A stretch of DNA of 64,000 bases from Candidatus Binatia bacterium. GTDB taxonomy: Bacteria > Desulfobacterota > Binatia > UBA9968 > JAJDTQ01. Where the stretch lies: contig OY762897.2 of the NCBI GenBank assembly GCA_963666515.2, forward strand, positions 2,176,001 through 2,240,000, read 5' to 3'. Below are positions 8,012-32,665 of this stretch, in pieces (within the stretch, counting starts at the first letter, position 1; each line of letters starts with the position of its first letter). The translations under genes were made by a program, and so were the position numbers. Below the pieces are notes generated by a model. It saw only the letters and a list, made by a program, of their open reading frames with translations, searched no databases and was not told the origin of the DNA.

Positions 8012-8018
8012 TCCGTCG

Positions 8019-9741: not shown

Positions 9742-9820
9742 GGCGTCCTCCAGTGTCGTCGCGGTTGACGGGTGTTTGAAACAACAACGGTCAAGTTGCC
9801 TACCCTATACCACAGGCACC

Positions 9821-10213
9821 CTATTGCGATTCAAACGGATAATGGCCTATGGACATGAGCCGCACGGCTGGCAGCTTCCTCAGTTGCCGGTTGAGCGGAT
9901 CGACTTCGATCCCCAGGGACTCCAGTGCCGTTACCCCGAGCAGCGGCTCGGTGTTCGCATCGCCGAAAAGGACCGTGCCCCCGACGACCTCTCCCATGAG
10001 CTCGATTCGCGCAACCGCGACGTCCATCGCAACTTCACTGCCGTTCGCCAGCAGGTATCTCCGCTGCCCTTCGGGCTCGATACCGATGGCTTCCAGGTGT
10101 TGCCTCGGGACGACGCTGTCGGTGGCGCCCGTGTCCACCACGAAGACCCCTTCCCAGGCCTTGTCCCGGTCGGCGGGGTTGCTGATGACTACTTTGGCGT
10201 TGACGACACCCAT
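9821..10213 (-). CDS. Clan AA aspartic protease (retropepsin-like, single domain)
   Basis: VVDTGAT catalytic motif and LLGVTALE motif in 130 aa. Confidence 0.85.
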   Translation of the reverse strand: MGVVNAKVVISNPADRDKAWEGVFVVDTGATDSVVPRQHLEAIGIEPEGQRRYLLANGSEVAMDVAVARIELMGEVVGGTVLFGDANTEPLLGVTALESLGIEVDPLNRQLRKLPAVRLMSIGHYPFESQ

Positions 10214-10267
10214 CTTGCATTCCTCCTTCCCCCGGGCCGGATAACTGGCTCCGGCGCCGGACCCGGC

Positions 10268-13200
10268 TCAGGCGAGCTTCAACTCGTCGGATACCTGGGA
10301 CAGCAGCTCGTTGATTTCCTCTACGGCTTCCGGTGCGGGAGCGGTCTCGCCGCCGAACTCGACCCGGACGTTGAACCGAAGGTCATGACCCACCGCGGCC
10401 TTGGCGATGTTCGGCACTTGGTCCGCCAGATCCTGGATGCCGTTGACCTCCAGGACCGCCTCGGCCGTTAGCAGCCCCTGGGGCTTCGGTGTCGGGGGCT
10501 TGACGTCACCGTCACCTTTCGGAACACGGAGGATGACGTGCCTGGCCCCGGCGAGGTCGCACGGCCAGGCGCCGCCCCCGTCGCCAAGCTCGATCCATCG
10601 CGCCCGGATACCGTCCTCTATGGCCGACTGCACGGTGAACCAGGGCAGGTTCATGCCGCGCCGGGCCGACAGCGCGGTGGCGACGGCGAGCGCGTTGGTC
10701 TCGCCATCCTTCCAGGCATCGGGGATCGCCTCGGCCATCAGCTCGTGAACCTCGAACCGCTCGGGGGGCGGGTGCAGCATCGCCGCGGCACCGAGGACCC
10801 CTGCGGGCACGGGCTCCTTCAGGATCGAAGCCGGTCCGTTGGTCAGCCACACGAGCCCGTTCTCCACGGCCTGTGAAACCGCCGCTTCCACGTCCTCCGG
10901 CTCGCACTTCGGCAACGTGACGGTCTCTTCATAGCCGTCCATCGGGACCGTCACGGTGTGGCCGCCGGCAAAGTAGTCGCACACGTCCTGGACGCTGATC
11001 CCTCCTTCGCGCCACAGTCCGGGCAGCTTTTCCGGTTCGAACAGCTCGGCCGGCAGCTCACTGAGTGTCACGGCTTCGGGCAATAAGACCTCCAGACCCG
11101 AGTCCTTGAGCGCAGGCTCGTCGATGGCCGTGCGCCAGAACGTTCTGACGGTCCTGTCAGGACGCAACAGCCGTGCCACCCATATCCCCTGGCGGACGCC
11201 CTGCACGACGGTATCGAGTATCTCCTTCGTCCGCAGCATCTTGGGCAGCTTGGGAAACTGGGCGAACGCTCCCACCAGGTCCTTCACCCGGCGCCCATCC
11301 TCCCCTTCCCGCCACAGGTCGTACGGACCGCCCGGCAGCATCGCCTCCGAGTTGATGGCCGTCTCCTGGATGCGGGAGCGCCTGTCCGCCTTGATGATCG
11401 TGAACAGGGGTTCGTCCGTCACCACCACCTTGAAGGCCTGGACGTCGTCGTTTTCGTTCACTGTGACGACAATGGAATATGCCTGGGTGACGGCGTCCGG
11501 GACGCGCTTCCGCGCAGCGTCCAGCTCCCTGGCGAGCATCTGCTCCCGGACGAGGTCGATGGACTGGTCCTTGAGCTGGTCGCGGACCTCCACCCAGCCG
11601 AGATATTCGCGCACGCGCGTGCGCGCCGCTTCGAGGCCGTCCCGCGAAGGAACGACCAGGACGACGGCATTGCGGTAGACCCGGGGCTTGTCGGCGGCGG
11701 TGGTCTCGTCGATGAACCGCCGTGCATCCGTGTTGGGCTTGCCGGACTCGGAGGCCGCCTTCGGTCCGAGGATGCCGTAGTGGAAATCGCCGTCGTCGGC
11801 GACGTCGCGCGGCCGCTCCGGCAGGTTGTGCACCTTCGCGCCCGCCGCCGCAGCGCCCGACGTGAGCGTCTTGCGTTTCTCGATGGCGTCGATGAGCTGC
11901 GATTCCACGAGTTCGGGCGGCACCCGCGTGGTGCACGCGTCGTGGTGCATCTGGCGCAGGTTGGGACGGTTGCCAAGCCGCCACCCCTTGGGCAGTTGCG
12001 GGGCGCCTTCCGGACCGGCGCCGCCCGTGGCCACCTGCACCTCGTCCAGGAACCAGGACAGTTCCGTCCAGCGGCGCAGGGCTTTCTCCAGCTCGATCCT
12101 GTCGGGACCGCCGGCTCCCAGCAGCGCCATCAACTCCGGCGTCGAAGCCTTGTGGCCGATGGGTTGAGAGTTGAGGAAAACCGCAATCACCGCCTGCTCG
12201 ATCTCCCGGTGGCGCAAACCCGCGGCCTCCGACTGAATCGTCCGCGCCTTGACCAGCTCGCCTTCGACGATGGGCCGCCACTCCTGCCCCCCGGCCGCTT
12301 CACCCACGCTGGCGAAAGACGCCAACTCGCTCGCGGCTTCCGCAAGGTCGTTCCTTTCCGGTTCGGCAAGCAGCACGTTGGGGCCCACCAGCGGGCTCGT
12401 GTCCCACTTCTCCGCGTCCCGTAGCGCAATGGCGAAGGTCCGCAGGATGCCGCGCGTGCGCTGGAAGCCCTCGACCTGGGTCCAGCGGGTGTAGAAGACC
12501 TCGGTGAGGTCCGGGTGAAAGGGATAGCTCTCCAGGTAGCGCTTTTCCGCGGCCTCGCGCTCCTTGCGAGTGCCCTCGTCAAGCGCGGCGATGCTGGCCG
12601 CGGCCGAGGTCACGTGCGGACGGAAAGCGTCGGTATCGCGAATCGATTCGGGTTTGAAGAAACGGCGCCGGAGAACCTCGGCCACGTCCTCCTTGCTCAC
12701 CGGGCTGGCGTCTTCCTCCTTCTGGCGGCCGAAGATCTCCGACACCTCTCGCAGCAACTCGCTGCCGAATTCATCGTTTTTCCGCGGGTCCGAGGCCAGC
12801 AGCGACGCCACCAGGGCGCAACGGTCCACCTTGACCACCGCTTGCGTCAGGTACTGGAAGAAGCTCATCAGGAGTCCGCGCCACGAGGGCTCGATCCGGG
12901 CGCGCATGTACATCAGCACCTCGTCCAGCAGCACCAGGGTCGAAAGCCCCTCCTTCTGTGGCGCCGACAACAGCTCCGCCAGGAGCGGCTCCGCAGGCGG
13001 CGTATCCCGCTCCTGGTCCTTGCCCTCGGCGTGGATCAGGCGGAGACCGTCCGGCCCGGCAAGCTGAAACGCCAGGATGCTCCACGGATGCCTGAGCATC
13101 CTCACGGTTCCGTCGGGCGCCCGCGTCTCGACCCCTTTCTCCAGGTCGATCTTGTCGAAGCACAGCGCCGCCACCCGCGCCTTGGGCGCCCGGGAACCGA

Positions 13201-13567
13201 TGTGCGCCTCGAAGTCCTGCACCGCCGACAGGTCGGGCAGCGCCGCCGGATCATGCACCAGGTGCCTGAGAGTGATGAGCGTATGAGTCTTGCCGCCGCC
13301 GTAGTTGACCGAGAGCTTCCTGCACGCCTTGTCGCTCTTGCCCGCCAGCCGAACGCACACGTCCTTGACCAACTCGCGCAGGTTGTAAGTCGGGTACGTC
13401 AGCGCGAAGAACTCCGCCGGGTCCTCGTACACCGGCCGACGGCCCTTCTGCATCATCACGTCGTGCAGGTCCGCGGCGAACACGGCCAACGAAAGCTCTC
13501 CGGTCTTGAGGTCGTCGCGCAACTGCACGACCTCGTGCCAGGGCTTCCGGGAAGGTTGGGTTGTCAT
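10268..13567 (-). CDS. DUF499-family AAA+ ATPase (restriction-like/BREX-related system)
   Basis: KPWHEVVQLRDDL..FAADL N-terminus, EFFALTYPT, Walker A YGGGKTH, Walker B VLLDE, SYPFHP, FQRTRGILR. Confidence 0.88.
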   Translation of the reverse strand: MTTQPSRKPWHEVVQLRDDLKTGELSLAVFAADLHDVMMQKGRRPVYEDPAEFFALTYPTYNLRELVKDVCVRLAGKSDKACRKLSVNYGGGKTHTLITLRHLVHDPAALPDLSAVQDFEAHIGSRAPKARVAALCFDKIDLEKGVETRAPDGTVRMLRHPWSILAFQLAGPDGLRLIHAEGKDQERDTPPAEPLLAELLSAPQKEGLSTLVLLDEVLMYMRARIEPSWRGLLMSFFQYLTQAVVKVDRCALVASLLASDPRKNDEFGSELLREVSEIFGRQKEEDASPVSKEDVAEVLRRRFFKPESIRDTDAFRPHVTSAAASIAALDEGTRKEREAAEKRYLESYPFHPDLTEVFYTRWTQVEGFQRTRGILRTFAIALRDAEKWDTSPLVGPNVLLAEPERNDLAEAASELASFASVGEAAGGQEWRPIVEGELVKARTIQSEAAGLRHREIEQAVIAVFLNSQPIGHKASTPELMALLGAGGPDRIELEKALRRWTELSWFLDEVQVATGGAGPEGAPQLPKGWRLGNRPNLRQMHHDACTTRVPPELVESQLIDAIEKRKTLTSGAAAAGAKVHNLPERPRDVADDGDFHYGILGPKAASESGKPNTDARRFIDETTAADKPRVYRNAVVLVVPSRDGLEAARTRVREYLGWVEVRDQLKDQSIDLVREQMLARELDAARKRVPDAVTQAYSIVVTVNENDDVQAFKVVVTDEPLFTIIKADRRSRIQETAINSEAMLPGGPYDLWREGEDGRRVKDLVGAFAQFPKLPKMLRTKEILDTVVQGVRQGIWVARLLRPDRTVRTFWRTAIDEPALKDSGLEVLLPEAVTLSELPAELFEPEKLPGLWREGGISVQDVCDYFAGGHTVTVPMDGYEETVTLPKCEPEDVEAAVSQAVENGLVWLTNGPASILKEPVPAGVLGAAAMLHPPPERFEVHELMAEAIPDAWKDGETNALAVATALSARRGMNLPWFTVQSAIEDGIRARWIELGDGGGAWPCDLAGARHVILRVPKGDGDVKPPTPKPQGLLTAEAVLEVNGIQDLADQVPNIAKAAVGHDLRFNVRVEFGGETAPAPEAVEEINELLSQVSDELKLA

Positions 13568-13574
13568 GCTGTCC

Positions 13575-14207
13575 TCATTCGCCGAGATCACGCCTCCCGG
13601 AAGGAAACCACTTGCTCAGGATACTCTTGAGTTCCAGAAACGCCGTATCGGTGCATCGACGCAAAGAAACCCTTTCCGCAATCTGTTGATACAGGGAAGC
13701 ACTCCGCGGTTTTTGCGCTTCACGCAGGGCCGCTTCAAATGCCTCTTTGGGCCGCCCCGGCTTAACCTCGCCCACTCGCAAGTATTTCTGCTCGATCAAC
13801 CAGGGGCGGAGTTTGGGATCACGGTTTCTCCAGCCTGCTACGACATCGACGTGCGGAGAATCACTCCAAATCCACGCTTCCAACTCTGGGGACAGCACGA
13901 CCGCCCTCGCCCGTTCGCCCCAAACCGAGCCGGCAAACGCCTCGTTGAGCGTTGTCTGGAGGTCTTGAGGCGTCGTGGCTTCCCTTCCGCTTCCCATGTG
14001 GTCGAATATGAGCAACCCATGGCCATAGTCCGCAGAGAGGTTGACCAGGAAATCAACGCCGCGCAATGCACAGGCAGGATCATGTTCCGGTTCCACAAAG
14101 ATATCGGCGTCGACGGGTCTGGTGCCCAACGCTTCTGGTCTTGCAAGCAATCCCTTCAGGACGTGTTCCAGATCCTTGTCCGCGGCAAGAATGACGATAT
14201 CCTTCAT
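13575..14207 (-). CDS. Small partner protein of ABC/AAA ATPase, MAD4-like (putative TOPRIM-like)
   Basis: MKDIVILAADKD...EPEHDPAC...PELEAWIW...PKEAFE; ATGA overlap with upstream ATPase stop; resemblance to MADS Mad4 is from recall. Confidence 0.65.
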   Translation of the reverse strand: MKDIVILAADKDLEHVLKGLLARPEALGTRPVDADIFVEPEHDPACALRGVDFLVNLSADYGHGLLIFDHMGSGREATTPQDLQTTLNEAFAGSVWGERARAVVLSPELEAWIWSDSPHVDVVAGWRNRDPKLRPWLIEQKYLRVGEVKPGRPKEAFEAALREAQKPRSASLYQQIAERVSLRRCTDTAFLELKSILSKWFPSGRRDLGE

Positions 14208-15457
14208 CCCAAGACCCCTGATGCAAGCAACATGCCGAGCTTGGCTTCGCCATGCCACTGCTTGAGCCTGGGATGCTCGGAACCGAGCACGATGTCCGTT
14301 GCTCCCATCCCGTCTTTGGCGAAGCATAACACGTCGCGTATTCCAGCGGCGTTCAATACTACCGGCGAGTGCGTTGCCAGCAGCACCTGCGCGCCGTAAA
14401 CGGACGAAAGGGAATCGTACGCCGTCGCTATGGCTCTGGGATGGATGCCGTTCTCCGGTTCTTCGATCAGGTAGATGCCACGAAGATCATTGAGATAGGC
14501 GGGCAAGGTCAGGGCTGTCAGCCTGAGGGTGCCGTCAGAGACCATCCAGGACGGCACTTTCAATCCACCTTTGTACTCATAGACCATGTAGCAATGTCTG
14601 TCGTCCTTTCGTTCAACGGTCGTAATCTCCTCCAGATCAGTCAGCGCCGTACGGAGGTGTGCGATCCAATCCCGGTATCGGTCTCCAGCTTCTCCACGCA
14701 ACCGCTCAACGACCCACGGCAGATTCGATCCGTTGGGCAAGAAACCTGCCACTCGCGTCGGCGGACTGGCCTGCCTGATCGCAAGGCTGTTGAGAACAAA
14801 CTTCTGCACCCCGGAGCTCAGGTATTCTCGAAACCACATGGCCACGGGGAGAGCATTGACGTCCGCGGGGAGATTGCCGAGGGCCGACTTTTGCGGCCCC
14901 AGCTTGAACGACGGCGCCCAGCCTTTTCCCCCTCGGGGATAGGTTTCACTGTAGAAGTTGTCGTTCCCTCCCGGCACCTTGTTGACTACGGTCTTGTAGT
15001 TCCGGCCCTTGGTCAGCAACGACTTCGGCGCGTCGGGCGGCATGGGAAACAGTGAGCGCTGGAGCGGCTCCGTCCCATTGTCTTTCTTGAGCAGGAACTT
15101 CTCCGCCTTGAACTCGAACTGCAGTTGTGTCTCATCGAAACCGATCGCCACTTCATACCGCGCCGTGTCCAACTCCGGTCTCGCCGTCCGCTTCCGCAAC
15201 TCATCCGGTATCCGCGCTTCGATGGCCAGTTCCAACCTGTCTCCCTGACGCCGAAACAGGAGCTCTTGCGGGTTGTTGGTTCGGCCGGACGTGGCTGCGT
15301 CCAAACCCTCCGACAAAAGGTCCTGGAGAAAGCCAACGACATCGAGAAAAGTCGTTTTGCCGGACGCGTTCGGTCCCACCAGTACGTGAAACGGGTGAAG
15401 CGGCCTCGAGACGTACCGCAAGCATCGATAGTTCAGCGCTTCAACCAGTGTGATCAT
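14204..15457 (-). CDS. ABC/AAA_21-type ATPase, MAD3-like
   Basis: Walker A GPNASGKTT, signature VSDGTLR, Walker B IEEPENGIHP, H-loop ATHSP. Confidence 0.85.
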   Translation of the reverse strand: MITLVEALNYRCLRYVSRPLHPFHVLVGPNASGKTTFLDVVGFLQDLLSEGLDAATSGRTNNPQELLFRRQGDRLELAIEARIPDELRKRTARPELDTARYEVAIGFDETQLQFEFKAEKFLLKKDNGTEPLQRSLFPMPPDAPKSLLTKGRNYKTVVNKVPGGNDNFYSETYPRGGKGWAPSFKLGPQKSALGNLPADVNALPVAMWFREYLSSGVQKFVLNSLAIRQASPPTRVAGFLPNGSNLPWVVERLRGEAGDRYRDWIAHLRTALTDLEEITTVERKDDRHCYMVYEYKGGLKVPSWMVSDGTLRLTALTLPAYLNDLRGIYLIEEPENGIHPRAIATAYDSLSSVYGAQVLLATHSPVVLNAAGIRDVLCFAKDGMGATDIVLGSEHPRLKQWHGEAKLGMLLASGVLG

Positions 15458-15493
15458 CCCTGCGCTCCATCCGGGTTCAGTGTTCAGAGGACC

Positions 15494-16147
15494 TCAGCGT
15501 GCGAGTTCCCGGAGTTTCCGTCGAAAGTACTGGAAACTGGGCGATGCGTTGTTTTCCACATCCATCAGCGGAGCGATCCTCTCCGCCCATGCCGACTTTT
15601 CCGCCCCTACTGCCTGCCATCCGTTCGATTTCAGCGCACCTGAACCGCCTGCGAATATGGCGTCAGCCAGAACTTCCCACGTGCCGCAAATCGAGTCGCT
15701 AGCGTAGCGGTTGAGGATATCGACCTTGGCGTTGGGATAGGCCGACCTGATCGCCGGGAGGTCTCCGAGCAGCCACGCTTCACCTTCTTCGATGGCGATG
15801 CAGAATCGAGTGGTCGGTCCAGGATTGCAAGCATTCAGCACGGCAAAGAGTTCCTGCCGAAATGTTTTCTGACACCTGTCGTCCAGGTCGCAAACCAAGA
15901 CCACCGCTGCTGGATAGTCGGCCGGGTAACCGGCAAATGCCCTGCCGTAGCCCTTGAGCAAACGGGGGAGTTGGTCAAGTAAAAGGCGCTTGCTGGCGTC
16001 GGTAACCCTCTTGAGGTTCCTTGGAATACGTCCGATTCCCCGGTATTTGGTCACCTTGAACGTGTGCTCACACCCGATCATCTTCGGGATCAAGATGTCA
16101 AGTGCCCTCTTGCCGGACGCGTCTTCGACAAGTACCTCGAAGTGCAT
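15494..16147 (-). CDS. DUF4276-like TOPRIM-fold partner protein
   Basis: HFEVLVEDASG, VCDLDD, IEEGEAWLLGD, SPSFQYF motifs; starts 4 nt after the ATPase stop. Confidence 0.75.
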   Translation of the reverse strand: MHFEVLVEDASGKRALDILIPKMIGCEHTFKVTKYRGIGRIPRNLKRVTDASKRLLLDQLPRLLKGYGRAFAGYPADYPAAVVLVCDLDDRCQKTFRQELFAVLNACNPGPTTRFCIAIEEGEAWLLGDLPAIRSAYPNAKVDILNRYASDSICGTWEVLADAIFAGGSGALKSNGWQAVGAEKSAWAERIAPLMDVENNASPSFQYFRRKLRELAR

Positions 16148-16151
16148 CCCA

Positions 16152-17423: not shown

Positions 17424-17442
17424 TTTGCAGTACCTTATTGAA

Positions 17443-19088: not shown

Positions 19089-19131
19089 CGGCTTTCCTCC
19101 GATTGACGGTTCATGTCCCAAGGGAACCGGA

Positions 19132-23159: not shown

Positions 23160-23188
23160 CCTTTAACTCCCTCTCCACTGACCGTGGC

Positions 23189-24610: not shown

Positions 24611-26349
24611 GACATCGTCCTCCGCGAAAAGGCAGTGGTACGCGAAAGCTCAAATATGGCATCGATCCCACCTTCGACATCCAACGCACGCATCTCCGTC
24701 CCGTTCCGTCCCAAGTATCCCGCCCAAAAATCAATGAGCCCGTTCAGCATTCGATTGTAGCGCTTGACAGTCCGCTCACGAGCGAAATCTGCCGCCGCGG
24801 CCTTGTTCTCGTAATTCACTCCCTCGAACACGGTCGCTGGCTCGATCAATAGCCAGAGCTTGTCATCGGCCCAACCTAGACGAATGGCGATGCCTTCGCT
24901 CCACAGCAGATCCCGATCACCATTGACCGTGCCGTTCAATCTTCCCACCAAATTCTCCAAGGGTTTCCAGACGACATCGCTCGGATTGGCCGGCGACAGT
25001 AGGTCCGTACCCCTGCGATGTCGCCGTATAAGGTCACACTCCCGCGCTAGCGCCACCGTCAAGGCTTCGCGTAAGAAACCGCGTTCGTTGGAATCGTATC
25101 TTTGTTTCCTGACGTCCAACGTGTGGATATCGAATTCGCTAATGTCCTTACCTTCAAATGCAGCCCGCACGTCGGCATCAGCACCAAAGGCCAAAACCCC
25201 GACTCCGGAGCGAACAGCGAGCACATTGACCCCAGCTTCCTGAACTGCTTGGCGTACCTCCGAAGTTCCACCTATTTCACAAACCACCCTCCTGCATGTG
25301 TTCGGCACTTTGACCAGAGGTAAGGCGTTGAGTCGTACGACCGGCCAACCGCGACGCCGGACTTGTGGAAGCGGTGCAGGACTCCAATGTCTGCGCTCCG
25401 TGGCGAAGTCATCAAGCACTTTGGTATCGATGCTCTCAAAAAGGCGCATCAAATCTCGCAAAGTCTCGTCGAAGTTCTCGATAACGACCAACGCCGTCTC
25501 AACCCCCGCTTCCTTCCCTCGATCCAAGAGTCTTTGAACACGTGTCAAGGGGGGTTGCTCACCACGGTGTAACCAAAAAAATCCGGAGGGAAACGCCCTT
25601 TGACACGTGATCGCCTCCTCCAAAGTGTCCATGATCGAGTCGTCACGCCCGCTGTATCCCGCAACCACAAGTCCAAATCGCTGGCATTGGGCGATCATTG
25701 CTTGTCTCAGGCGTTGATCTTGATGTCTTAATTCGTCGTCCGTGTTCTTCAATCGGCGGGATCGGAAATCGCCATGTAGCTTTACCTCGAGTGGCCAGCG
25801 CTCGTCGGCTATCGCTTGTTCGGCCAAATCCGGGGCGTCGAGAGCCGCTGTGGTTAACGCACCTGTGGTGTCATATATCTTTGCACAGGCGTCGGCTACC
25901 AGTGCATCGAAGTTTGTAGTCCAGACGATGCGCATCAGTTCGGCGTACATCAACGTAGCGAGCGCCATGTGACCATAAGACGGTTTCGCTCCCGCCAATT
26001 TCGCACGCAAAAACGCTTGGCGGTCCTTTTCGGCAGGATACGCAGCTTCGAATAGCTGAGCGTACTCGTCCGGAGCACCCGGCTTAGGGGATTGCTCCAT
26101 GGAATCGATGTGGCCCTGGAGCTGATCACGCACCATGGGCTGGGAAAGATCTGCTACGGTTTGATACGAGCCCCGACGTTGACTGACGAAAAGCGTCTGT
26201 TTGAACTCCCATATCATGTCCATGGCAGTAGGAACACCGGCCGCAGCAGAACTCCCAGCGCCAAGGAACCACATCAGACTTCGCGCCCGCATGGAGAAAC
26301 GACGCGCGAAGTCATCCAGTGTGATTCTTGGAGTATCTGATTCCTGCAA
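24607..26349 (-). CDS. SIR2-APAZ NADase effector (SPARSA-type)
   Basis: FLGAGSS, WTTNFD, KLHGDF, GYSGRD sirtuin motifs; C-terminal APAZ-like region; TTG start with AGGAGG RBS; stop overlaps the pAgo start. Confidence 0.9.
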   Translation of the reverse strand: MQESDTPRITLDDFARRFSMRARSLMWFLGAGSSAAAGVPTAMDMIWEFKQTLFVSQRRGSYQTVADLSQPMVRDQLQGHIDSMEQSPKPGAPDEYAQLFEAAYPAEKDRQAFLRAKLAGAKPSYGHMALATLMYAELMRIVWTTNFDALVADACAKIYDTTGALTTAALDAPDLAEQAIADERWPLEVKLHGDFRSRRLKNTDDELRHQDQRLRQAMIAQCQRFGLVVAGYSGRDDSIMDTLEEAITCQRAFPSGFFWLHRGEQPPLTRVQRLLDRGKEAGVETALVVIENFDETLRDLMRLFESIDTKVLDDFATERRHWSPAPLPQVRRRGWPVVRLNALPLVKVPNTCRRVVCEIGGTSEVRQAVQEAGVNVLAVRSGVGVLAFGADADVRAAFEGKDISEFDIHTLDVRKQRYDSNERGFLREALTVALARECDLIRRHRRGTDLLSPANPSDVVWKPLENLVGRLNGTVNGDRDLLWSEGIAIRLGWADDKLWLLIEPATVFEGVNYENKAAAADFARERTVKRYNRMLNGLIDFWAGYLGRNGTEMRALDVEGGIDAIFELSRTTAFSRRTMS

Positions 26350-26393
26350 TCCCTCCTCCTATGCCGCTTCCGCAATCCTTCTGTCCCGGTCCA

Positions 26394-26987
26394 TCAGTCT
26401 GGCAATCCACGGAAGGCATTACGAAGATCCGCTATGAAACGCTGAAAGGACCTGTCCACACTTGCCACGCGGTCGATTTCCATATGCCGGACAATCTCAT
26501 CCGCGTATTCGATACCCCCGAGCCTCGGTACCGTTTCGGTAGCTCTAATGGCCTCGATCAGTCGTTCCTTGTAGCGGCTTCGGGCGCACTTCTGGTCGGG
26601 TGCATCGCAGCCCTTTCCGAACACAGCCTTGAACGCTGCCCCATCCAACAGCAACCAGCGCTCTATGTGGGGATCAGGTATGGCGAGGATAAGCGTGGGT
26701 TTGTCTCGACTCCTTTTGGCTTGGCTCCTTACTTCCTGCGCTCGTCGGTTCAAGCCCCTGCAGTTGGCGTCGGTGGCTACAACGAGCAGATCAGGCCACG
26801 GACTACCTTGGCGCTCGAGATCACTTATGTAGTCCTTGAGCTTTCCGACAACTTTGCCGTAGCCGCCTACGGCGTTGCGCCAATTGAGCCGTATGGAGAC
26901 ACCGTATTCCGCGGCGATCCTCTCCACGAGTGTCCCGATCACCTGCCGATGCGCGTAGTCCTCAACGAACAGCGCAATCTCACGCAT
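26394..26987 (-). CDS. Small TOPRIM-like/DUF4276-like partner of ATPase
   Basis: ALFVED, VATDAN, PDPHIERWLL motifs; overlaps the ATPase stop. Confidence 0.65.
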   Translation of the reverse strand: MREIALFVEDYAHRQVIGTLVERIAAEYGVSIRLNWRNAVGGYGKVVGKLKDYISDLERQGSPWPDLLVVATDANCRGLNRRAQEVRSQAKRSRDKPTLILAIPDPHIERWLLLDGAAFKAVFGKGCDAPDQKCARSRYKERLIEAIRATETVPRLGGIEYADEIVRHMEIDRVASVDRSFQRFIADLRNAFRGLPD

Positions 26988-28290
26988 CGAAATCTCCTCT
27001 CAGAATGCGTTCAGACACGGCTGGTGCGTCCTGCTGGTCCGATAGTGCCTCATCGATCCCAATCCGTCGTCCCAATGGCCCCCAAACAGAAAACGAGTCG
27101 ATCCGAGTCCTTCGGTCGATCCGATTCATCACGAACAGGGAGCTGTCCTCCAACATATCAGGCAGGATGGGCGAGTGCGTCGTGACAACGTACTGGGTCG
27201 TCTTCAGGACCTCCTGAGTCTTGAGAAGCTCAGCGATGAGCTGGATTCGACGAGGGTGAACGCCGTTTTCTGGTTCTTCGAAACCCACAAGCGCAGGGGC
27301 CTCGTCAACACCGGTCAACGCTAGAAGCCCGAGCATCCGCAGTGTCCCTTCCGAGAGTACGCGAGCGGGGAACGCAACACCGCCTTCCCGGAGGCGAAGC
27401 TCCACCTCACCGAGATCGCTAACCTCCACTTCGATGCCGTCGATGTTCGGCATCAACAGATTGAGCGCCTTCTCAATGCCTTTGAACTGTCTCTCATCCG
27501 TGGCCTTCATGGTGTTGAGGAACGCTGCGAGCTCTTCTCCCATCAAGCCGATATGGCGGACTTCCTTTACCGGATTGGCGGCACGCATGCGTTCGCGCGG
27601 CTCGAAGTAGAAAAACAACCAACTCTCCAACTCGCGCCGTGCAGCCACCAAATGGGGATAGTGTGGCGGATAATGCGGCATGGAGAGGATGCTATGATCC
27701 AGATAACGGTCGAAATAGGTGGGGTGCGCTTGCCCTTCGTGGCGGAGGTGTATTCTTCCGCCTTGTCTTTCGAGAAAAGGCTTGCGCTTGCCCGTGGGCT
27801 CTCCCTTGCTGTTGAGCGCAGCCAGATACTCGTCGGCAACACGCAACACGCCCGACCTGGGCAGCATTTCCACCTCAATGCGGTACCGCAAGTCGCGTTC
27901 ACGAACGCGCGCTGGCACCTTGCTCTGCTTCTGGGAGACTCCGGCATCGTTTGGTCGACGCATTTCTCGGATCTGGCGATCGACGAACTTTACCACGCTG
28001 TCCGACAAGCTCAGATCGGCTTCGATTGAAAACGACAACCGCTCTTGCTCCAGCAAACCCTTGATCCCTGTTTGCCCTATCGTAAAGGACTCCAGCGGCT
28101 TTCCACGATAAGGAGGCTCAAAGGCTTCTTTGAGCGTCCGGCTCGTCACTAGCTTTGACAACAATTGCAAAGCGTCAAGTAGATTGCTCTTGCCGGCGGC
28201 ATTCGGCCCAAACAGGACGACAAGCTGAGACAGACTCACTTCAACGTCTTCAAGGGACTTGTACCCTCGTATTTGTACGCGCTTCAGCAT
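26980..28290 (-). CDS. ABC/AAA_21-type ATPase
   Basis: GPNAAGKS, LSEGTLR, FEEPENGVHP, TTHSP motifs. Confidence 0.88.
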   Translation of the reverse strand: MLKRVQIRGYKSLEDVEVSLSQLVVLFGPNAAGKSNLLDALQLLSKLVTSRTLKEAFEPPYRGKPLESFTIGQTGIKGLLEQERLSFSIEADLSLSDSVVKFVDRQIREMRRPNDAGVSQKQSKVPARVRERDLRYRIEVEMLPRSGVLRVADEYLAALNSKGEPTGKRKPFLERQGGRIHLRHEGQAHPTYFDRYLDHSILSMPHYPPHYPHLVAARRELESWLFFYFEPRERMRAANPVKEVRHIGLMGEELAAFLNTMKATDERQFKGIEKALNLLMPNIDGIEVEVSDLGEVELRLREGGVAFPARVLSEGTLRMLGLLALTGVDEAPALVGFEEPENGVHPRRIQLIAELLKTQEVLKTTQYVVTTHSPILPDMLEDSSLFVMNRIDRRTRIDSFSVWGPLGRRIGIDEALSDQQDAPAVSERILRGDFDA

Positions 28291-28320
28291 GTTTCCCCCT
28301 CCAGGACTCCAATCAAGCAA

Positions 28321-28381
28321 TCCTCAGCTTGGCGAAGGATCGCCTTGGCGATTTCCAGTGCCTCCTGGTGCTGCTTTTCTG
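28321..28381 (-). pseudogene. Diverged duplicate of the HEPN gene 3' end
   Basis: 51/61 nt identical (hand alignment) to 22338-22398; encodes EKQHQEALEIAKAILRQAE versus EKQHQEALEIAKSVIRWAE. Confidence 0.8.
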
Positions 28382-28420
28382 CAGCGGCACGGCTGCTCTC
28401 TGCTCGGTTCACACCCGGCT

Positions 28421-28783
28421 CTACCCAGCCAGCGGAACAATCCTTGAACCGCGGATGACCCGATCCCGCGTCAGTAACGGCACGTCATGCACGATGCTGG
28501 TGGCGGCGATGATCTCGTCCGCGGGATCGCCCTTGAAGTCCAGTCGGGTCGAGGCTCGCGCAACGGCGAAATCGATCGGCCACACGTGCACGCGGTTCAA
28601 TACACGGACCACTTCACGGTCGTCGAGGTCCACATCCAACCGACCCAGTTGGACGAGCTTGGCCAATTCCCACAAGACTATGGCCGAAATGGACCACGGA
28701 CTCCCCGTCAATAGACTCTGCTCGGAACGTTGGAGGTTGCCGTCCATCGCGAAGACGAGAATATGCGTGTCAAGATTGAGCAT
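28421..28783 (-). CDS. PIN-domain toxin (VapC family)
   Basis: NLDTHIL, SAIVLWE, DPADEIIAAT, LLTRD motifs. Confidence 0.9.
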   Translation of the reverse strand: MLNLDTHILVFAMDGNLQRSEQSLLTGSPWSISAIVLWELAKLVQLGRLDVDLDDREVVRVLNRVHVWPIDFAVARASTRLDFKGDPADEIIAATSIVHDVPLLTRDRVIRGSRIVPLAG

Positions 28784-28994
28784 TTGCGTCCCAGGAAACG
28801 CCGGTCGTCAGGATATCTCCCCGAATCTTGATCTTGTGTCGCAGGCTACCGATCAGATCAGCGCATTGCCGGTCGTAGGGGACCACCCGGGCGACAGGCT
28901 TGCCACGCTTCGTAACGATCAACCCTTCCGTGTCAAGGCTGTCCAGCAATGCCAGGCACTGCTCTTTGAACTTGGCGGCTCCAATCGTCTTCAT
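28770..28994 (-). CDS. Phd/YefM family antitoxin
   Basis: MKTIGAAKFK...VTKRGKPVARVVP; overlaps the PIN gene. Confidence 0.9.
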   Translation of the reverse strand: MKTIGAAKFKEQCLALLDSLDTEGLIVTKRGKPVARVVPYDRQCADLIGSLRHKIKIRGDILTTGVSWDANAQS

Positions 28995-29010
28995 TGTGTT
29001 CCTCCGCTAA

Positions 29011-29048
29011 ACTGGACACATTATATGACCAGTCACTCAATTTGTCTA
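29011..29048 (-). promoter_or_regulatory. Sigma70-like promoter with overlapping palindromic operator for the TA operon
   Basis: On the - strand TAGACA (29043-29048), 17 nt, TATAAT (29020-29025); imperfect inverted repeat ACTGGACA...TGACCAGT (29011-29033) covers the -10. Confidence 0.7.
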
Positions 29049-29088
29049 TGCTGACCGCCATTGATAGGCAAGTGGAAGCTGATGTTCA

Positions 29089-32000
29089 TCAGTTGATTCC
29101 CGCCTGTTCCGCTGCCTCCATGACCGCACCCGCCGTGATGGTAAACGCGAGCGACTCCCGTCCCTTGACCAGCAGCTTCGCGAACGGATCGCGTACCCTT
29201 ACCAGCCGAGGGTTGGGCGTGGCGCAGTCGAAGACCACGTAGAGCCAGTACCGACCCCGAAGGTTGCAGGCCCTGGACCACTCGTTTTCCTGCATCTCCA
29301 CGCTGCCGGTGCGCGCGCGGCCTTTGACTTCGATGGCTCGTTCTTCCCCGAGACGGCGGGATCTGAGATCGAAGCCCGGCCAATCGGTCAGGCCGGCGCG
29401 GCGTGCGAGTTCGGGGCGCGATACGTCGGCGACCTCGGCGCCGAAGCGCTCCTCGTAGGCAGTGGCCACCTGCATTGCGACGGCTTCCACGTCGGAGTCG
29501 TATCGCTCGGTCTCGCCGGTGTCCTGTACGGGCACCACGAGAGCGTGGGCGAGCAACTCGACCTCTCCGGCCTGGATGAGGTCCGGCTCGGCTTCCAACG
29601 CGGCCAACGCGCGGTTGCGGTGGCTTGTCAGGCTCCGCTGCCGTTCCTTGACTCTCGAAAGCTCGGCGTTGGCACGGGGGTCACCCGCGCGCGCCTTCTC
29701 CCCGAGACGCGCGCGGGCCGCGGTCAGCTCCGCGGCACGAAAGTCGAACCCGCGCTTGACGAAGTCGACGCGGGCGGGGAGGTCTTCCGTGCGACGCTGC
29801 CGGTGCGACTGGACAAGCCGGTCCAGCACGAACTCCCGTGCGTAAGTCACGGCATCCTGGACCATGCCGCGCGCCAGGGTCGCGAGGGGAACTCGGCTCG
29901 GCGCGAAGCCATGTGCGCCTCTGAGCAACAGCAGGTGCTCGACCGGACACTCCTCCACGGCGCCGTCGTTGGACTGGCGCAGCCCGGTAAGCCTCGACTC
30001 CAGAGTCTTCGAGGCTGACTGTTCGCGCTGTTCCACCGTCACCCGTGCGACGTGGAACAGGTACGGCTCGGTTGCATAAGGGTCGGTGAACACGGCGCCC
30101 CGAAGACCGTCCCGGCCGAAACGGTCCAGGACGGTAACCGACAGAGCGTCGAACAGCGGCTCGCCGGGGTGCAGCCAGACAGCGTCTTCACGGGTCGCCG
30201 GCTTGTAGACCGTAAGACGTTGCCGCGCAGGCTCGGCGTACCGTTCGAGGGCGGGCAGCAGCGGGTCGCCGGCGCCGGGACGGTCGGAAACGAATGCGAA
30301 GGTCGTTTCCGGATCGCCTTCGATACGGAGGTTCAGCAACGGCGCCACCTTTTCCACGAAACGGCGGACGTAGCCGGGCAGAAGCCGCCGGTAGTTCTCC
30401 TGCTCCGCCTCATCCTTGAGGTCGTCGAGTCTTCCGCGCACGTCCCCGCCCTGCCCGTAGAGCACACGCTCCCTTTCCTCCAGAGCCCGGACCTGCTCCT
30501 CGGTCAGGTGTCCCTCCAACTGCTGGACAACGGCTTCCGCATCGTCCGTGACAGCCTGCTCAAGGTAGTCCTTCATGGAGACGCCCTCGAACAGGCGGCC
30601 CACCACGTCGAACACCTTGTCGGACTGAAGCCTGCGGCGCATGGCCTCCAGCTTGTCGAGCAGCGTCTTGAGCACCCTGCCCTCGCGCGTGCCGCCGGCC
30701 ACCAGATTGACGATGACCACCGGATCGTGACGCTGGCCGTAGCGATGGATGCGGCCCATCCGCTGCTCCAGCCGCGCCGGGTTCCAGGGGATGTCGTAGT
30801 TGACCATGAGCCAGCAGAACTGCAGGTTGATCCCCTCACCCGCGGCATCCGTGGCCACCAGGTAGCTGGCTCCGCCTTCGGCCGCTGGCCGCCGGAAGAA
30901 CTCGACTTGCCGTTCCCGTTCCTGGTACGGCAGGCCGCCGTGGATCAGCGCGACGCGGCCGGTGAAGCCCAGACCTTCGAGGCGGCGCACTAGGAATTCC
31001 GCGGTGTCGCGGTGCTCGGTGAAGACGATGAACTTCTCGTCGGCGTAGCGAGGATCGCGGAGCACTTCGCGCAACTTCTCGAACTTGGACTCCTCGCCGG
31101 CATCGAAAAGCCGTCGCGCCTTGTCGAGCAACTCCTCGACCTTCAGACGCTCGGTCTCCAACTCCCCGAGAGTCACCGCGACCGTAGCGCCGAGCGCCTG
31201 GCTTTCGAACTCCTCGTGCTGCTCGCCCCGGTCCTCGATCGACGCATCCTCGTCCGCGGTGCGACTCTCGAAGACGTCCTCAATATCGTCCAGGTTCCGC
31301 TGAAGGCGGGCGAGCGCTTCCTCGGTGAGCCCCCCGTCCCGAATGTCTTCGATCAGCCCCTCGATCTTGTCCAACCGGCGCTCGAAAGACCGCATCAGGG
31401 CATACGTGGAGCTGGCCAAGCGCCGCTGGAAGACGCTCATGGCCAAGCGGGCCGCGGACCGGTTCAGCACCCGAGCCCGGTTGTAGTAGAAGCGGAGGTA
31501 CTCGGTCGCGTCGTCGTAGAGTTCCTGTTCACCTTCCCGCCCCTGAGACAGGTCGTAACTCAGCGTGTCGCAGTTGCGCTGCGGATACAGCGGAGCACCA
31601 TCAAGATGAACCAGCTCCTCCTTGGTCCGGCGGATGAAGTGCCTCGGCCGCGAATCGCGGGCAAACGCATCGAACGCGTCGCCGGTCGAGAGCGTGTCGG
31701 GAAGCAGCAGCCGCCACAGGAAGTAGTAGGGGTGGTCCTTGCCCATGTGCGGCGTTGCGGTCAGCAGCAACAGATGCTGAGCAGACCACGGTAGTCTCCA
31801 CCGGTCACCGTCCACCTCGGCGCCCGCCAATGCCTCCGCCAGCCGGTAACGGTCGGTCTTCCGCACCCGGAAGTCGGGCTGGCGATCCGCGGAGAGCTTG
31901 TGCGCTTCGTCGAAGACCACAAGGTCGTAAGGCTGCGTCGCCGCATCCTTGAGGCAACCGAACAGCCTTTCTCCGGCCAGGGTGTCGACGCTGACGATGA

Positions 32001-32661
32001 CGTGATCGCCCTCGGGACCGGCGAACGGGTTGCCTACGCGCGCATCCGCGCCGCTGACGATGCGGAACGGCAGGCGAAACAGCGTGCGCATCTCCCGCTC
32101 CCAGTTTCCCACCAGGCCGGCGGGCGGCACGATGAGCACGCGGCGGATGAGCCGCCGGGACAGCATCTCGCGTACGTACAGGCCCGTCATGATGGTCTTC
32201 CCCGCCCCTGCATCGTCGGCAAGCAGAAAGCGCAGGGGAGCTTGCCGCAGCATCTGCTCGTAGACGGCGATTCGCTGATGGGGAAGCGGGTCGATCAGTG
32301 AAGTCTCGGTGGCGAAAGCAGGGTTGAAGAGGTGACCGTAGGCAAGCCGATGCGCCTCGGCGACGGCGGAGACTGCGTCGGGGTTGGCGGAGAAGTCGAG
32401 GCTGGGCGGAGTCGTCGGACCGGCATCGTATTCGACTTCGGTCCCTTCCATCACGTGGTCGGGTTGGGTCTCGATCTCCGCGATTCGCCGCCATGCCAGC
32501 TTGTTTGGACGGGACTGCCCGTTCTCCCAGCGATTGACGGTGACGTAGGATACCCCGACAAGCTCCGCGAACTGCGTTTGCGTGAGACCCTTGACTCCCC
32601 GCACACGTCTGATTCGCTGCGGGAAGTCCTCGGCCAAGTCGGGGGATACGAGAGGCGACAT
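29089..32661 (-). CDS. SNF2-family helicase with N-terminal XRE HTH and C-terminal DUF3883 (PD-(D/E)XK-like) domain
   Basis: LTQTQFAELVGVSYVTVNRWENG HTH; LLADDAGAGKT, FDEAH, EQRMGRIHRYGQ helicase motifs; GFDLRS..IEVKGR. Confidence 0.9.
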   Translation of the reverse strand: MSPLVSPDLAEDFPQRIRRVRGVKGLTQTQFAELVGVSYVTVNRWENGQSRPNKLAWRRIAEIETQPDHVMEGTEVEYDAGPTTPPSLDFSANPDAVSAVAEAHRLAYGHLFNPAFATETSLIDPLPHQRIAVYEQMLRQAPLRFLLADDAGAGKTIMTGLYVREMLSRRLIRRVLIVPPAGLVGNWEREMRTLFRLPFRIVSGADARVGNPFAGPEGDHVIVSVDTLAGERLFGCLKDAATQPYDLVVFDEAHKLSADRQPDFRVRKTDRYRLAEALAGAEVDGDRWRLPWSAQHLLLLTATPHMGKDHPYYFLWRLLLPDTLSTGDAFDAFARDSRPRHFIRRTKEELVHLDGAPLYPQRNCDTLSYDLSQGREGEQELYDDATEYLRFYYNRARVLNRSAARLAMSVFQRRLASSTYALMRSFERRLDKIEGLIEDIRDGGLTEEALARLQRNLDDIEDVFESRTADEDASIEDRGEQHEEFESQALGATVAVTLGELETERLKVEELLDKARRLFDAGEESKFEKLREVLRDPRYADEKFIVFTEHRDTAEFLVRRLEGLGFTGRVALIHGGLPYQERERQVEFFRRPAAEGGASYLVATDAAGEGINLQFCWLMVNYDIPWNPARLEQRMGRIHRYGQRHDPVVIVNLVAGGTREGRVLKTLLDKLEAMRRRLQSDKVFDVVGRLFEGVSMKDYLEQAVTDDAEAVVQQLEGHLTEEQVRALEERERVLYGQGGDVRGRLDDLKDEAEQENYRRLLPGYVRRFVEKVAPLLNLRIEGDPETTFAFVSDRPGAGDPLLPALERYAEPARQRLTVYKPATREDAVWLHPGEPLFDALSVTVLDRFGRDGLRGAVFTDPYATEPYLFHVARVTVEQREQSASKTLESRLTGLRQSNDGAVEECPVEHLLLLRGAHGFAPSRVPLATLARGMVQDAVTYAREFVLDRLVQSHRQRRTEDLPARVDFVKRGFDFRAAELTAARARLGEKARAGDPRANAELSRVKERQRSLTSHRNRALAALEAEPDLIQAGEVELLAHALVVPVQDTGETERYDSDVEAVAMQVATAYEERFGAEVADVSRPELARRAGLTDWPGFDLRSRRLGEERAIEVKGRARTGSVEMQENEWSRACNLRGRYWLYVVFDCATPNPRLVRVRDPFAKLLVKGRESLAFTITAGAVMEAAEQAGIN

Positions 32662-32665
32662 ATGA

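Follow-up and report, generated by a model that had tools for sequence, protein, structure and literature searches.

A Candidatus Binatia Hma locus whose two inter-gene gaps are probably filled with self-contained defense modules

We describe a defense locus in a 64,000-nucleotide stretch of DNA from Candidatus Binatia bacterium (assembly GCA_963666515.2, contig OY762897.2, positions 2,176,001 to 2,240,000), referred to here as the window. Between positions 9821 and 32718 lie 18 minus-strand open reading frames (ORFs) arranged head to tail, of which 17 are intact genes; two gene relics lie in the same region. The region is very probably a single Hma (Helicase-Methylase-ATPase) system with both of its inter-gene gaps filled with self-contained defense modules. 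Reading along the minus strand, the order is hmaA, slot A, hmaB, slot B, hmaC and then a retropepsin-like protease gene. Slot A spans about 6.8 kb (22330-29088) with eight ORFs and slot B about 5.5 kb (13592-19131) with seven. Lodged inside the three-gene system are six two-gene modules, all intact, together with one orphan ATPase and two relics. The four modules of slot A are Phd-PIN, an ABC ATPase paired with DUF4276, the SPARSA pair of SIR2-APAZ and a short Argonaute, and MNT-HEPN; in slot B the orphan PDC-M07A ABC ATPase and an Avs2 stub precede HEC-01A/B and MAD3/MAD4 (Table 1). The first-pass annotation of this DNA had described about 17 co-oriented minus-strand genes, many overlapping, with cargo at 22310-28994 and 13575-19088. 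That description agrees with the intact genes counted here and their overlaps of 4 to 20 nt, and its slot limits match gene ends and starts. The locus is a heavily loaded example of an already published arrangement and not a new kind of system.

Genes were identified with Pfam, PADLOC and NCBIfam profiles searched against the 18 locus proteins. The core encodes a SNF2 helicase with a C-terminal NOV_C domain, a DUF1156 methyltransferase and a DUF499 ATPase, co-oriented in the order hmaA-hmaB-hmaC, and all three proteins are full length and keep their catalytic motifs. Pfam and PADLOC agree here with the first-pass annotation, which had named a helicase-DUF3883 protein, a DUF1156 protein and a DUF499 protein. 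By sequence, the core is an Hma system, alias Type-1 DUF499-centered BREX-related (BR) system; the latter name was given to Hma by Rakesh and Krishnan (2026, PMC12839542), for whom the Gao restriction-like family (Gao_RL) is Type-2. Membership of the Gao restriction-like (RL) family, which had been proposed earlier, did not hold, and identity with Gao_RL/MANTIS (Type-2 BR) was ruled out. No DUF3780 match was found among the 18 locus proteins with Pfam or NCBIfam, in line with the earlier failure to recognize such a gene, and there is no PLD/HKD fusion. Scores against the NCBIfam equivalogs of Gao_RL were 79 against a cut-off of 1200 for DUF499_antiphage, 179 against 1000 for DUF1156_antiphage and 144 against 1100 for phospholipD_antiphage, the last match covering the helicase part only. 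Because DUF3780 is lacking and the RL scores lie far below the cut-offs, the core belongs to the sister family Hma and not to Type-2.

HmaA departs at its N terminus from the published description of Type-1 BR helicases. Pfam assigned HTH_3 (residues 36-81), SNF2-rel_dom, Helicase_C and NOV_C (E 7.9e-14), and the motifs GAGKT, DEAH and D..EVK are present. The PADLOC HmaA model scored 563 bits over residues 107-1191 and aligned only from its position 68. RapA was the best relative in a search of solved structures. Although the longest ORF begins at TTG 32718, ATG 32661 is favored as the start and agrees with a weak promoter-like site (9/12 matches) at 32728-32701. A TUDOR domain is stated to be the N-terminal element of Type-1 BR helicases (PMC12839542), whereas HmaA has a helix-turn-helix (HTH) in that place. 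When residues 1-181 were modeled with AlphaFold, positions 11-65 formed helices with a predicted local distance difference test score (pLDDT) of about 88-91, the remainder was of low confidence, and no beta-rich domain preceded Walker A. The XRE-type HTH (window 32420-32661, minus strand; HmaA residues 1-80) is conserved across 44 aligned N termini (alignment A3, comprising 43 loci and the window; 47 relatives qualified). The HTH-bearing HmaA is a variant within the Hma family and is not excluded from it. Its HTH could act as an autoregulator of the operon.

The longest ORF of hmaB spans 19132-22500. ATG 22329 is its likely start, because the homologs compared for length (75-97% identical, P0001 at 97%) are 1051-1106 aa long. 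HmaB matched Pfam DUF1156 (E 1.9e-18) and the PADLOC HmaB model (406 bits), and its motifs FAGGG and DPPY are invariant in 19 sequences (alignment A1). HmaC matched Pfam DUF499 (E 4.1e-17, 61.7 bits with a cut-off of 23) and PADLOC HmaC (230 bits), and has Walker A and B motifs (GGGKT, LVLLDE). A sequence search against solved structures gave 0 matches for HmaB, 0 for HmaC and none for MAD4, and only weak matches to OLD and PtuA for MAD3, so these proteins could not be tied by sequence to the MANTIS and MAD3-MAD4 structures in the literature.

The cargo was predicted to consist of defense or abortive-infection modules, and the family matches support this with two corrections: one supposed gene is an Avs2 stub, and one ATPase has no partner. 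One module of slot A is the adjacent, full-length pair of SIR2-APAZ and MID-PIWI short Argonaute. Residues 10-575 of SIR2-APAZ align with residues 5-580 of solved chain 8jl0_A (E 1e-70), with 8in8_B scoring equally, and residues 4-473 of the Argonaute align with 7-473 of 8in8_C (E 1.7e-109). The motifs TTNFD, HGD and GYSGRD, which we take to be catalytic, are kept and aligned with the solved SIR2 protein. Judged by these alignments, the pair is an intact SPARSA system.

Two further modules of slot A are predicted toxin-antitoxin pairs, Phd-VapC (type II) and MNT-HEPN (type VII), each made up of adjacent overlapping genes with signature motifs. PIN and HEPN families are RNase toxins. A GGAGG precedes the ATG of phd, and the PIN toxin had no tblastn relative at E ≤ 1e-5 in the 80 related loci described below. 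The MNT protein has the GS...DVD motif and scored below the NCBIfam MntA cut-off (27 against 60). The HEPN ORF extends to 22834, with ATG 22720 as its likely start; its stop lies 20 nt inside hmaB, and the Rx4-6H motif is present (RWAEERIH). The 3′ end of this HEPN gene recurs in the gap ahead of the slot A ABC ATPase as a 61-nt direct repeat (22338-22398 and 28321-28381, 84% identical), and the relic there matches HEPN residues 145-166 at 68% (tblastn, E 1.7e-05). The fourth module is the slot A ABC ATPase (ABC_1) with its DUF4276 partner. The ATPase ORF extends to TTG 28320 and contains the Walker A motif GPNAAGKS. Of the 12 loci that match it best, 11 have a homolog of 76-88% identity in slot A; matches of the DUF4276 protein to PADLOC HEC-01B are weak.

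In slot B, the first gene encodes a PDC-M07A-like ATPase that stands alone. In 16 of 26 relatives a partner of about 195 aa lies within 200 bp downstream of an ATPase of this type. That partner gene is absent from the window, where PADLOC gave no PDC-M07B match, and the Avs2 stub lies in its place; there is accordingly an A gene without the second component of a PDC-M07 system. Homology of the ATPase stops near residue 447 (about 17840), exactly where the stub begins. A single deletion probably removed both the partner and most of the Avs2 gene. Matches of cluster-1 proteins to the window were considered as a possible partner gene and rejected, being the C-terminal half of the ATPase in mis-called long ORFs. 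A full-length Avs2 STAND NTPase has about 1400-1500 aa, and only the last 124 codons are left here. They are 56% identical to residues 1309-1430 of a 1436-aa slot B protein of locus L010 (tblastn, E 4e-38), which clusters with an Avs2 scoring 1712 bits. The 73-aa ORF at 17443-17664 matches positions 1433-1490 of the 1504 in the PADLOC Avs2 model and, by this match, is part of the gene stub and no gene of its own.

The remaining four genes of slot B form two pairs. HEC-01A and HEC-01B are adjacent, as expected of a HEC-01 system; the HEC-01B ORF extends to 16309, and ATG 16147 corresponds to model position 1. MAD3 and MAD4 overlap in an ATGA, and the mad4 stop abuts or overlaps the start of hmaC. 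MAD3 is 95-96% identical to the slot B genes of L001 and L002. Among the 18 locus proteins there was no homolog of MAD6, MAD7 or MAD8; the PADLOC matches listed are to mad2 (weak), mad3 and mad4, and PADLOC-DB holds at least a mad6 model. Since MAD6-8 are lacking, the locus is not a MADS system.

To place the locus among its relatives, HmaB homologs were collected; close homologs number in the thousands, with 7687 of 8000 scored candidates matching at E ≤ 1e-20. In a scan of one genome per species, at least 544 of 600 candidate stretches were confirmed, and the best 80 loci (L001-L080), each with 10-kb flanks, made up the comparison set. Nearly all are metagenome-assembled genomes (MAGs) titled Latescibacterota, Dehalococcoidia or other Chloroflexota, Poribacteria, Caldilineaceae, Binatia and others. 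Wherever they were found in the 80 loci, HmaA lay upstream and HmaC downstream of HmaB. The slots varied widely in length: the median was 2288 bp for slot A (76 loci, range -31 to 9168 bp) and 1890 bp for slot B (64 loci, range -13 to 9075 bp). Slots of at least 300 bp were present in 70/76 loci for A and 56/64 for B; at least one slot was occupied in 62/64 loci, and both were empty in 2/64. The slots contained 408 ORFs, 327 of them co-oriented, in 246 clusters. The earlier proposal of a two-slot hotspot is borne out by this range from empty slots to more than 9 kb, by the number of clusters and by the many known defense systems in the slots. PADLOC matched representatives of 17/46 multi-member clusters (E ≤ 1e-5) and 31/104 singletons (E ≤ 1e-25), among them SPARTA, long prokaryotic Argonaute (pAgo) with a Cas4-like nuclease, Avs2, CBASS, Gabija, Nsn, type II restriction-modification (RM), HEC-07, PD-T4-6 and several PDC candidates. 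Pfam added DUF2806, zeta-like kinases, ParE, AbiJ and Schlafen domains and one IS3-family transposase.

Across L001-L080, HmaB is 55-81% identical to that of the window in MAGs titled Binatia, Latescibacterota, Poribacteria, Chloroflexota, Gemmatimonadota, Spirochaetia, Acidobacteriota and others. This conservation is unusually high for a defense gene.

Argonaute systems are recurrent tenants of slot A. SPARTA (TIR-APAZ plus short pAgo) was found in 7 loci, and in 6 of them the pAgo match reaches to within about 30 nt of HmaB. Argonaute systems adjoin HmaB in L003, L012, L014, L021, L028 and L039; L016 and L017 have truncated PIWI-only ORFs, and L042 carries a long pAgo with a Cas4-like nuclease (4887-8193). 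L048 and L006 have decayed SPARSA systems of the window's type, placed as in the window behind the ABC-DUF4276 pair. Neither a SPARSA of this type in intact form nor the window's exact gene combination occurred in any of the 80 loci. The suggestion that the combination is undescribed therefore stands for the exact gene set, and not for the architecture (Payne 2024, Liu 2024, PMC12839542).

Mapped on an HmaB tree, the cargo families showed little phylogenetic order. Their presence changed about as often as when labels were shuffled: 6 changes against 6.9 for pAgo, 9 against 9.5 for HEC-01A, 6 against 7.7 for MAD3, 7 against 9.5 for ABC_1, 15 against 19.6 for M07A and 13 against 15.2 for the protease. 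Host phylum labels changed 18 times against 38.6 in the shuffled control. Since the phylum label is clustered and the cargo is near shuffled, the core appears to be inherited largely within phyla while the cargo is reshuffled. L002, also from Binatia, has one ABC module in slot A, MAD3-MAD4 in slot B (95% and 85% identical to the window's) and the protease after HmaC. L001 (13164-18990) has the slot B order of the window (M07A, HEC-01A/B, MAD3/MAD4), with HmaC not found in the next 4 kb, and L047 (8090-18788) has seven of the window's cargo families in a different order. Together, L001 and L047 suggest a shared cargo pool reshuffled by recombination. In L004, L020 and L048, ABC_1 is 86-88% identical to that of the window compared with 72-79% for the core genes. 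This difference was considered as proof of recent cassette exchange and rejected as such, because the partner DUF4276 is only about 70% identical there. Window-type ABC ATPases occur in 35/64 slot B and 13/76 slot A regions; the window has four and no relative more than three (three in 2/64). With about 12.3 kb of cargo in total, the window would rank fourth of 65, slot values near 9 kb in the relatives being limited by the flanks.

Base composition separates cargo from core. In 1-kb windows the G+C content (GC) is 0.554-0.589 at 14-19 kb and 0.551-0.591 at 23-29 kb, compared with 0.667-0.671 for hmaC (10-13 kb), 0.643-0.663 for hmaA (29-32 kb) and 0.591-0.657 for hmaB (19-23 kb); host flanks have 0.645-0.70. 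The earlier impression that the slots are richer in A and T is thus confirmed (55-59% GC against 59-67% in the core). GC at third codon positions (GC3) is about 0.9 in flanking genes, 0.86, 0.81 and 0.76 in hmaC, hmaA and hmaB, and 0.59-0.73 in the seven cargo genes scored. In the relatives, GC was lower in the slot than in the core in 68/69 regions for slot A and 54/54 for slot B (regions of at least 600 bp).

Junctions between the genes are tight or overlapping. Partners within a module overlap by 4-14 nt or are separated by a few nt (overlaps of 14 nt for Phd/PIN, 8 for ABC/DUF4276 and 4 each for SIR2-APAZ/pAgo and MAD3/MAD4), and HEPN overlaps HmaB by 20 nt. In 54/66 loci the end of the last slot A ORF lies no more than 40 nt before or after the HmaB start; the median is an overlap of 17.5 nt. 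No terminator-like site was found in the intergenic gaps; all such sites were intragenic, in numbers not above those in shuffled sequence. Since the genes share a strand, have tight or overlapping junctions and lack intergenic terminator-like sites, the cargo is probably expressed largely by read-through. Promoter-like sites in 22000-34500 numbered 3 against 2.0 expected from shuffles, and no sigma-70-like site was found in 9000-22500. The strongest candidate is a consensus match only, just upstream of phd, and the Phd-PIN pair is probably under its own promoter. Read-through transcription combined with at least one internal promoter is the likeliest picture inferred from these features.

Beyond HmaC lies a clan AA aspartic protease gene. 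By tblastn the protease occurs in 21/80 loci, in 12 of these within 113 bp downstream of HmaA, and just after HmaC in L002 and the window. The copies share 57-93% identity, and of the 11 that were aligned 10 retain VDTGAT (DTGA) at the active site. This protease is not among the PADLOC models. In a literature search on retropepsin-like proteases in defense, none of the papers listed contains the term "retropepsin-like"; the words aspartic, aspartyl and retropepsin are absent from the main text of PMC12839542 and "aspart" from that of PMC11232893, Payne 2024 not having been searched for these words. Rows of a supplementary table of Liu 2024 (PMC11232893) do include clan AA proteases, one of them after an HmaA with HTH_3.

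Table 1. Features of the Hma locus, in window coordinates and in the order of the minus strand, with protease copies in related loci (locus coordinates)
Feature	Position	Strand	Description
HmaA	29089-32661	-	XRE-type HTH, SNF2 helicase, C-terminal NOV_C (formerly DUF3883) PD-(D/E)xK nuclease
Promoter-like site	29020-29048	-	TAGACA, 17 nt, TATAAT; 11/12 matches; about 25 nt upstream of the phd start
Phd/YefM-family antitoxin	28770-28994	-	PhdYeFM_antitox E 4.1e-07; NCBIfam phd_fam 25.1 bits (cut-off 20.8)
PIN-domain (VapC-like) toxin	28421-28783	-	Pfam PIN E 3.2e-12
HEPN relic	28320-28385	-	HEPN gene remnant (C-terminal part), preceding the slot A ABC ATPase
ABC (OLD-type) ATPase, HEC-01A-like (ABC_1)	26980-28290	-	Pfam AAA_21, AAA_15; PADLOC HEC-01A 188 bits
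DUF4276 (TOPRIM-like) partner	26394-26987	-	Pfam 36.9 bits (cut-off 30.2)
SIR2-APAZ (SPARSA NADase partner)	24607-26349	-	PADLOC Aga_SIR2-PNTD1-PNTD2 613 bits
Short Argonaute (MID-PIWI)	23189-24610	-	PADLOC pAgo_I 643 bits
MNT nucleotidyltransferase, type VII antitoxin	22707-23159	-	Pfam Polbeta, NTP_transf_2; start uncertain (23159 or 23030)
HEPN RNase toxin	22310-22720	-	Pfam HEPN E 2.1e-25, from residue 51
HmaB	19132-22329	-	DUF1156 N6-adenine DNA methyltransferase, 1065 aa
PDC-M07A-like ABC ATPase, orphan	17787-19088	-	PADLOC PDC-M07A 194 bits
Avs2 relic	17467-17838	-	Last 124 codons of an Avs2-type NLR gene; contains 73-aa ORF
HEC-01A ABC ATPase	16152-17423	-	PADLOC HEC-01A 610 bits, full length
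HEC-01B, DUF4276/TOPRIM-like	15494-16147	-	PADLOC HEC-01B 310 bits, from residue 55
MAD3-family OLD-like ABC ATPase	14204-15457	-	NCBIfam antiphage_MADS3 493 bits (cut-off 420)
MAD4-family nuclease partner	13575-14207	-	NCBIfam antiphage_MADS4 195 bits (cut-off 160); match begins at residue 42 in the long ORF
HmaC	10268-13591	-	DUF499 AAA+ (ORC/Cdc6-type) ATPase; start GTG 13591 or ATG 13567
Clan AA (retropepsin-like) aspartic protease	9821-10213	-	NCBIfam clan_AA_DTGF 75 bits (cut-off 57); follows hmaC after 54 bp
Protease copies elsewhere	L002 18581-18946; L007 3702-4079; L008 3820-4185; L038 5355-5726; others		tblastn

A working model can be drawn up by analogy with characterized relatives. 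In MANTIS, asymmetric sites are hemimethylated by a DUF1156 methyltransferase that is loaded by the DUF499 ATPase, and a helicase-nuclease cuts unmodified DNA (bioRxiv 10.64898/2026.09.23.753747). In Halomonas HmaA, the helicase motif VI arginine R610 is needed, and NOV_C nicks DNA and is needed for defense (PMC11232893). On these analogies, HmaC would load HmaB at short asymmetric sites, where adenine methylation would label the DNA as self, and HmaA would translocate on unmarked DNA, which its NOV_C nuclease would nick or cut. Each cargo module would act on its own trigger. SPARSA, for which NAD+ depletion is described in the literature, would deplete NAD+ after guide-directed detection of invading DNA; the ABC ATPase-TOPRIM pairs, MAD3-MAD4 included, would be OLD-like ATP-dependent nucleases; and PIN and HEPN would be RNase toxins restrained by their antitoxins. 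The outcome would be a layered immune locus that combines methylation-based restriction with several abortive-infection effectors. The cargo would be younger than the core and would turn over by insertion, recombination and deletion, leaving stubs behind.

Several points weigh against reading the region as a working Hma core loaded with working modules. HEC-01 gave no protection in the one published test (Payne 2024), and for Halomonas, HmaA sufficed to protect E. coli against T4, which left the parts played by HmaB and HmaC unclear (PMC11232893). The orphan PDC-M07A ATPase, its partner lost, may be dead. The mechanistic model comes from a Type-2 system, MANTIS, whose DUF3780 co-factor and PLD nuclease are both absent here, and every functional step at the locus is inferred by analogy. 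The strong promoter-like site inside the locus speaks against a single transcript, and the promoter scan covered sigma-70-type sites only. In the comparison set, the 10-kb flanks truncate any slot longer than about 9 kb; ORF calling in the slots was naive (longest ORFs, with 81/408 on the opposite strand), and spurious ORFs inflate the cluster counts. The HmaB tree (FastTree) has 65 rows, 16/80 loci having been dropped for partial matches or in-frame stops.

Other readings concern mainly why the cargo is there. The slots could be a pure genomic sink in which insertions are merely tolerated, the cargo being kept by linkage and addiction, without benefit from nesting and with partial decay. Payne 2024 itself raised this hypothesis, and the relics, the orphan ATPase, the decay of SPARSA in two relatives, the random distribution of cargo on the tree and the two toxin-antitoxin pairs all fit it. 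We nevertheless consider it rather doubtful, as six modules are intact with catalytic motifs, 327/408 slot ORFs are co-oriented even in the naive set (96.7% in Payne 2024), and the spacing within 40 nt at 54/66 HmaB junctions suggests selection on expression. Tight cargo-to-core junctions fit another reading, a guarded back-up. As with PrrC and PARIS, one or more modules would be held inactive by physical or functional contact with the core and would fire upon anti-restriction, for example by a DNA mimic; the OLD-type ABC ATPase-TOPRIM pairs would be the most plausible guards, and embedding would have been selected for function. The precedents of PrrC in EcoprrI and of PARIS and Gabija triggered by Ocr (Payne 2024) speak for such guarding, as does the fact that ABC ATPase modules are the commonest cargo (35/64 slot B and 13/76 slot A regions). 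It is unlikely all the same: cargo presence is nearly random on the HmaB tree, 27/64 loci have no window-type ABC ATPase, and the HEC and PDC families matched here were chosen partly because they are common outside Hma loci (Payne 2024).

Two further ideas assign the cargo, or part of it, to the core machinery. MAD3-MAD4 could belong to the restriction machinery of this Hma lineage as an integral arm. In MADS, deletion of mad3 or mad4 abolishes defense (Maestri et al.), and MAD3-MAD4 shows ATPase and DNA-cleavage activity (PMC13662399). Both proteins pass NCBIfam equivalog cut-offs, the pair is the last module before HmaC in L002, L021, L056, L072, L077 and the window, and in three deep-branching loci (HmaB 56-58% identical) it lies in, and probably fills, a slot B of 1.9-2.2 kb. 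Strong MAD3 matches (at least 400 bits) were, however, found in only 8/80 loci and are distributed nearly at random on the tree; HmaA already has a nuclease, the pair lies downstream of HmaC in L064, and MAD6-8 homologs are lacking, which makes an integral arm quite improbable. About equally improbable is that nesting is functional, the HTH-HmaA lineage being a carrier operon with an XRE-autoregulated promoter and coupled junctions, in which MAD3-MAD4 and other OLD-like pairs and the protease cooperate with the core. The pairs adjacent to HmaC would then be a second restriction arm or a guard against Hma inhibition, with the protease as an accessory, and the locus would be one integrated multi-effector immune machine and no stack of independent systems. 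Finally, the whole region as a mobile element (an integrative element, transposon or integron-like array) that captures cassettes by a site-specific recombinase is scarcely credible. GC below that of the host, an IS3-family (rve) transposase gene on the minus strand within L024 slot B and the phage integrases near 19.1% of hma loci (Liu 2024) would be in its favor; Pfam found no integrase, transposase or recombinase in the locus or its flanks, the flanks carry ordinary metabolic genes with GC3 of about 0.9, and no repeat family flanks the cassettes. The sole long repeat is the HEPN remnant, other repeat families in the locus being conserved ATPase motifs or short, probably chance, matches.

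If the region is, as we think very probable, one Hma core with self-contained modules in both gaps, it shows how far embedding can go. Published rules that count up to 3 genes per gap would miss or truncate such loci, and embedding is probably undercounted in uncultured lineages. The close relatives form a natural series for the question, left by Payne 2024, of whether nesting alters expression, cost or protection: L002 has one module per slot, L001 the same slot B order, and L048 and L006 a decayed SPARSA. The cargo load, the HTH on the HmaA N terminus and the recurrent protease are possible additions to knowledge.

Elsewhere in the window, a fifth ABC ATPase is encoded outside the Hma locus at 53183-54961 (plus strand). 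It is NsnB-like (PADLOC 153 bits; Pfam AAA_15, AAA_21) and is followed by a 153-aa ORF without family match, with GC of 0.57-0.59; an AAA_22 protein is encoded upstream at 51328-52995. This stretch is probably a separate small defense islet. A ZMP/ZTP riboswitch (Rfam RF01750, 48.3 bits with a gathering score of 39) lies at 59089-59173 (plus strand) inside the ORF 58718-60403; as the Aminotran_5 match begins only at residue 185 of that ORF, the true start is probably downstream of the riboswitch. ARAGORN predicted a 92-nt tRNA-Arg(CCG) at 33923-34014 (plus strand), inside the amidase ORF 33251-34594. Rfam gave no tRNA there, the prediction is probably a false positive, and it was dropped as a candidate integration site. 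Two ORFs had no Pfam or PADLOC match, 45178-46671 (plus strand, 497 aa, GC3 0.71) and 8701-9741 (minus strand, 346 aa, GC3 0.90).

Among known systems, PrrC in EcoprrI (type I RM) and BrxU in BREX (pEFER) resemble the locus in that effectors are nested in a methylation-based system; coupling or complementarity has been shown experimentally for them and is a possibility here. MANTIS/Gao_RL, the only relative with a worked-out mechanism, shares a homologous DUF499 ATPase and DUF1156 methyltransferase and the logic of an SF2 helicase-nuclease. It differs in needing the small co-factor MtsB (DUF3780 in PMC12839542, DUF3870 in the preprint) and in having an N-terminal PLD/HKD nuclease, both absent from the locus. 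MADS is similar in pairing an OLD-like ATPase-nuclease with a methylation-based system, and the MAD3 and MAD4 cut-offs are passed here. MAD3-MAD4 is a 2:2 ATPase-nuclease with ATPase and DNA-cleavage activity (PMC13662399); mad3 and mad4 deletions lose defense and MAD6-8 are mandatory (Maestri et al.), whereas the locus has none of the latter three and its methylation system is Hma. The SPARSA pair aligns end to end with GsSir2/Ago (8in8; Zaremba 2022 preprint; PMC11452484) with the SIR2 motifs conserved; it differs in being nested inside another defense operon and is known here from its sequence.

The closest parallels are published Hma loci (Payne et al. 2021, 2024; Liu 2024), which have the same core families in the same order without DUF3780 and co-oriented cargo in both gaps, with ABC ATPase plus TOPRIM/DUF4276 pairs as the commonest cargo. 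Auxiliary or back-up effectors and a pervasive OLD-ABC association have also been described for BREX and BR loci (Rakesh and Krishnan 2026, PMC12839542), whose Type-1 helicases carry TUDOR at the N terminus where the locus has an XRE-type HTH. Halomonas meridiana, with hmaA-ptuAB-hmaB-(AAA_21 pair)-hmaC, likewise has cargo in both gaps: Septu follows hmaA, and an AAA_21 pair stands between hmaB and hmaC, as it does in all Halomonas loci (Liu 2024). It differs in having one module per gap, compared with four and three here, no pAgo and no toxin-antitoxin pair, and its HmaA has no HTH in the Pfam list of Liu 2024. Payne 2024 found embedded genes in 931 of 1,485 Hma systems (62.7%), 96.7% of them co-oriented, and discussed back-up, linkage and co-regulation; from this "guilt-by-embedding" came the Hma-embedded candidates (HEC), including the HEC-01 present here, which was originally defined from Hma-embedded genes. 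Liu 2024 reported insertions in 66.5% of hma loci. Compared with these figures the clade of the window is more heavily loaded (62/64 loci) and has a recurrent retropepsin-like protease, and the locus itself has 8 and 7 ORFs in its two gaps compared with the up to 3 embedded genes per gap counted in Payne 2024.

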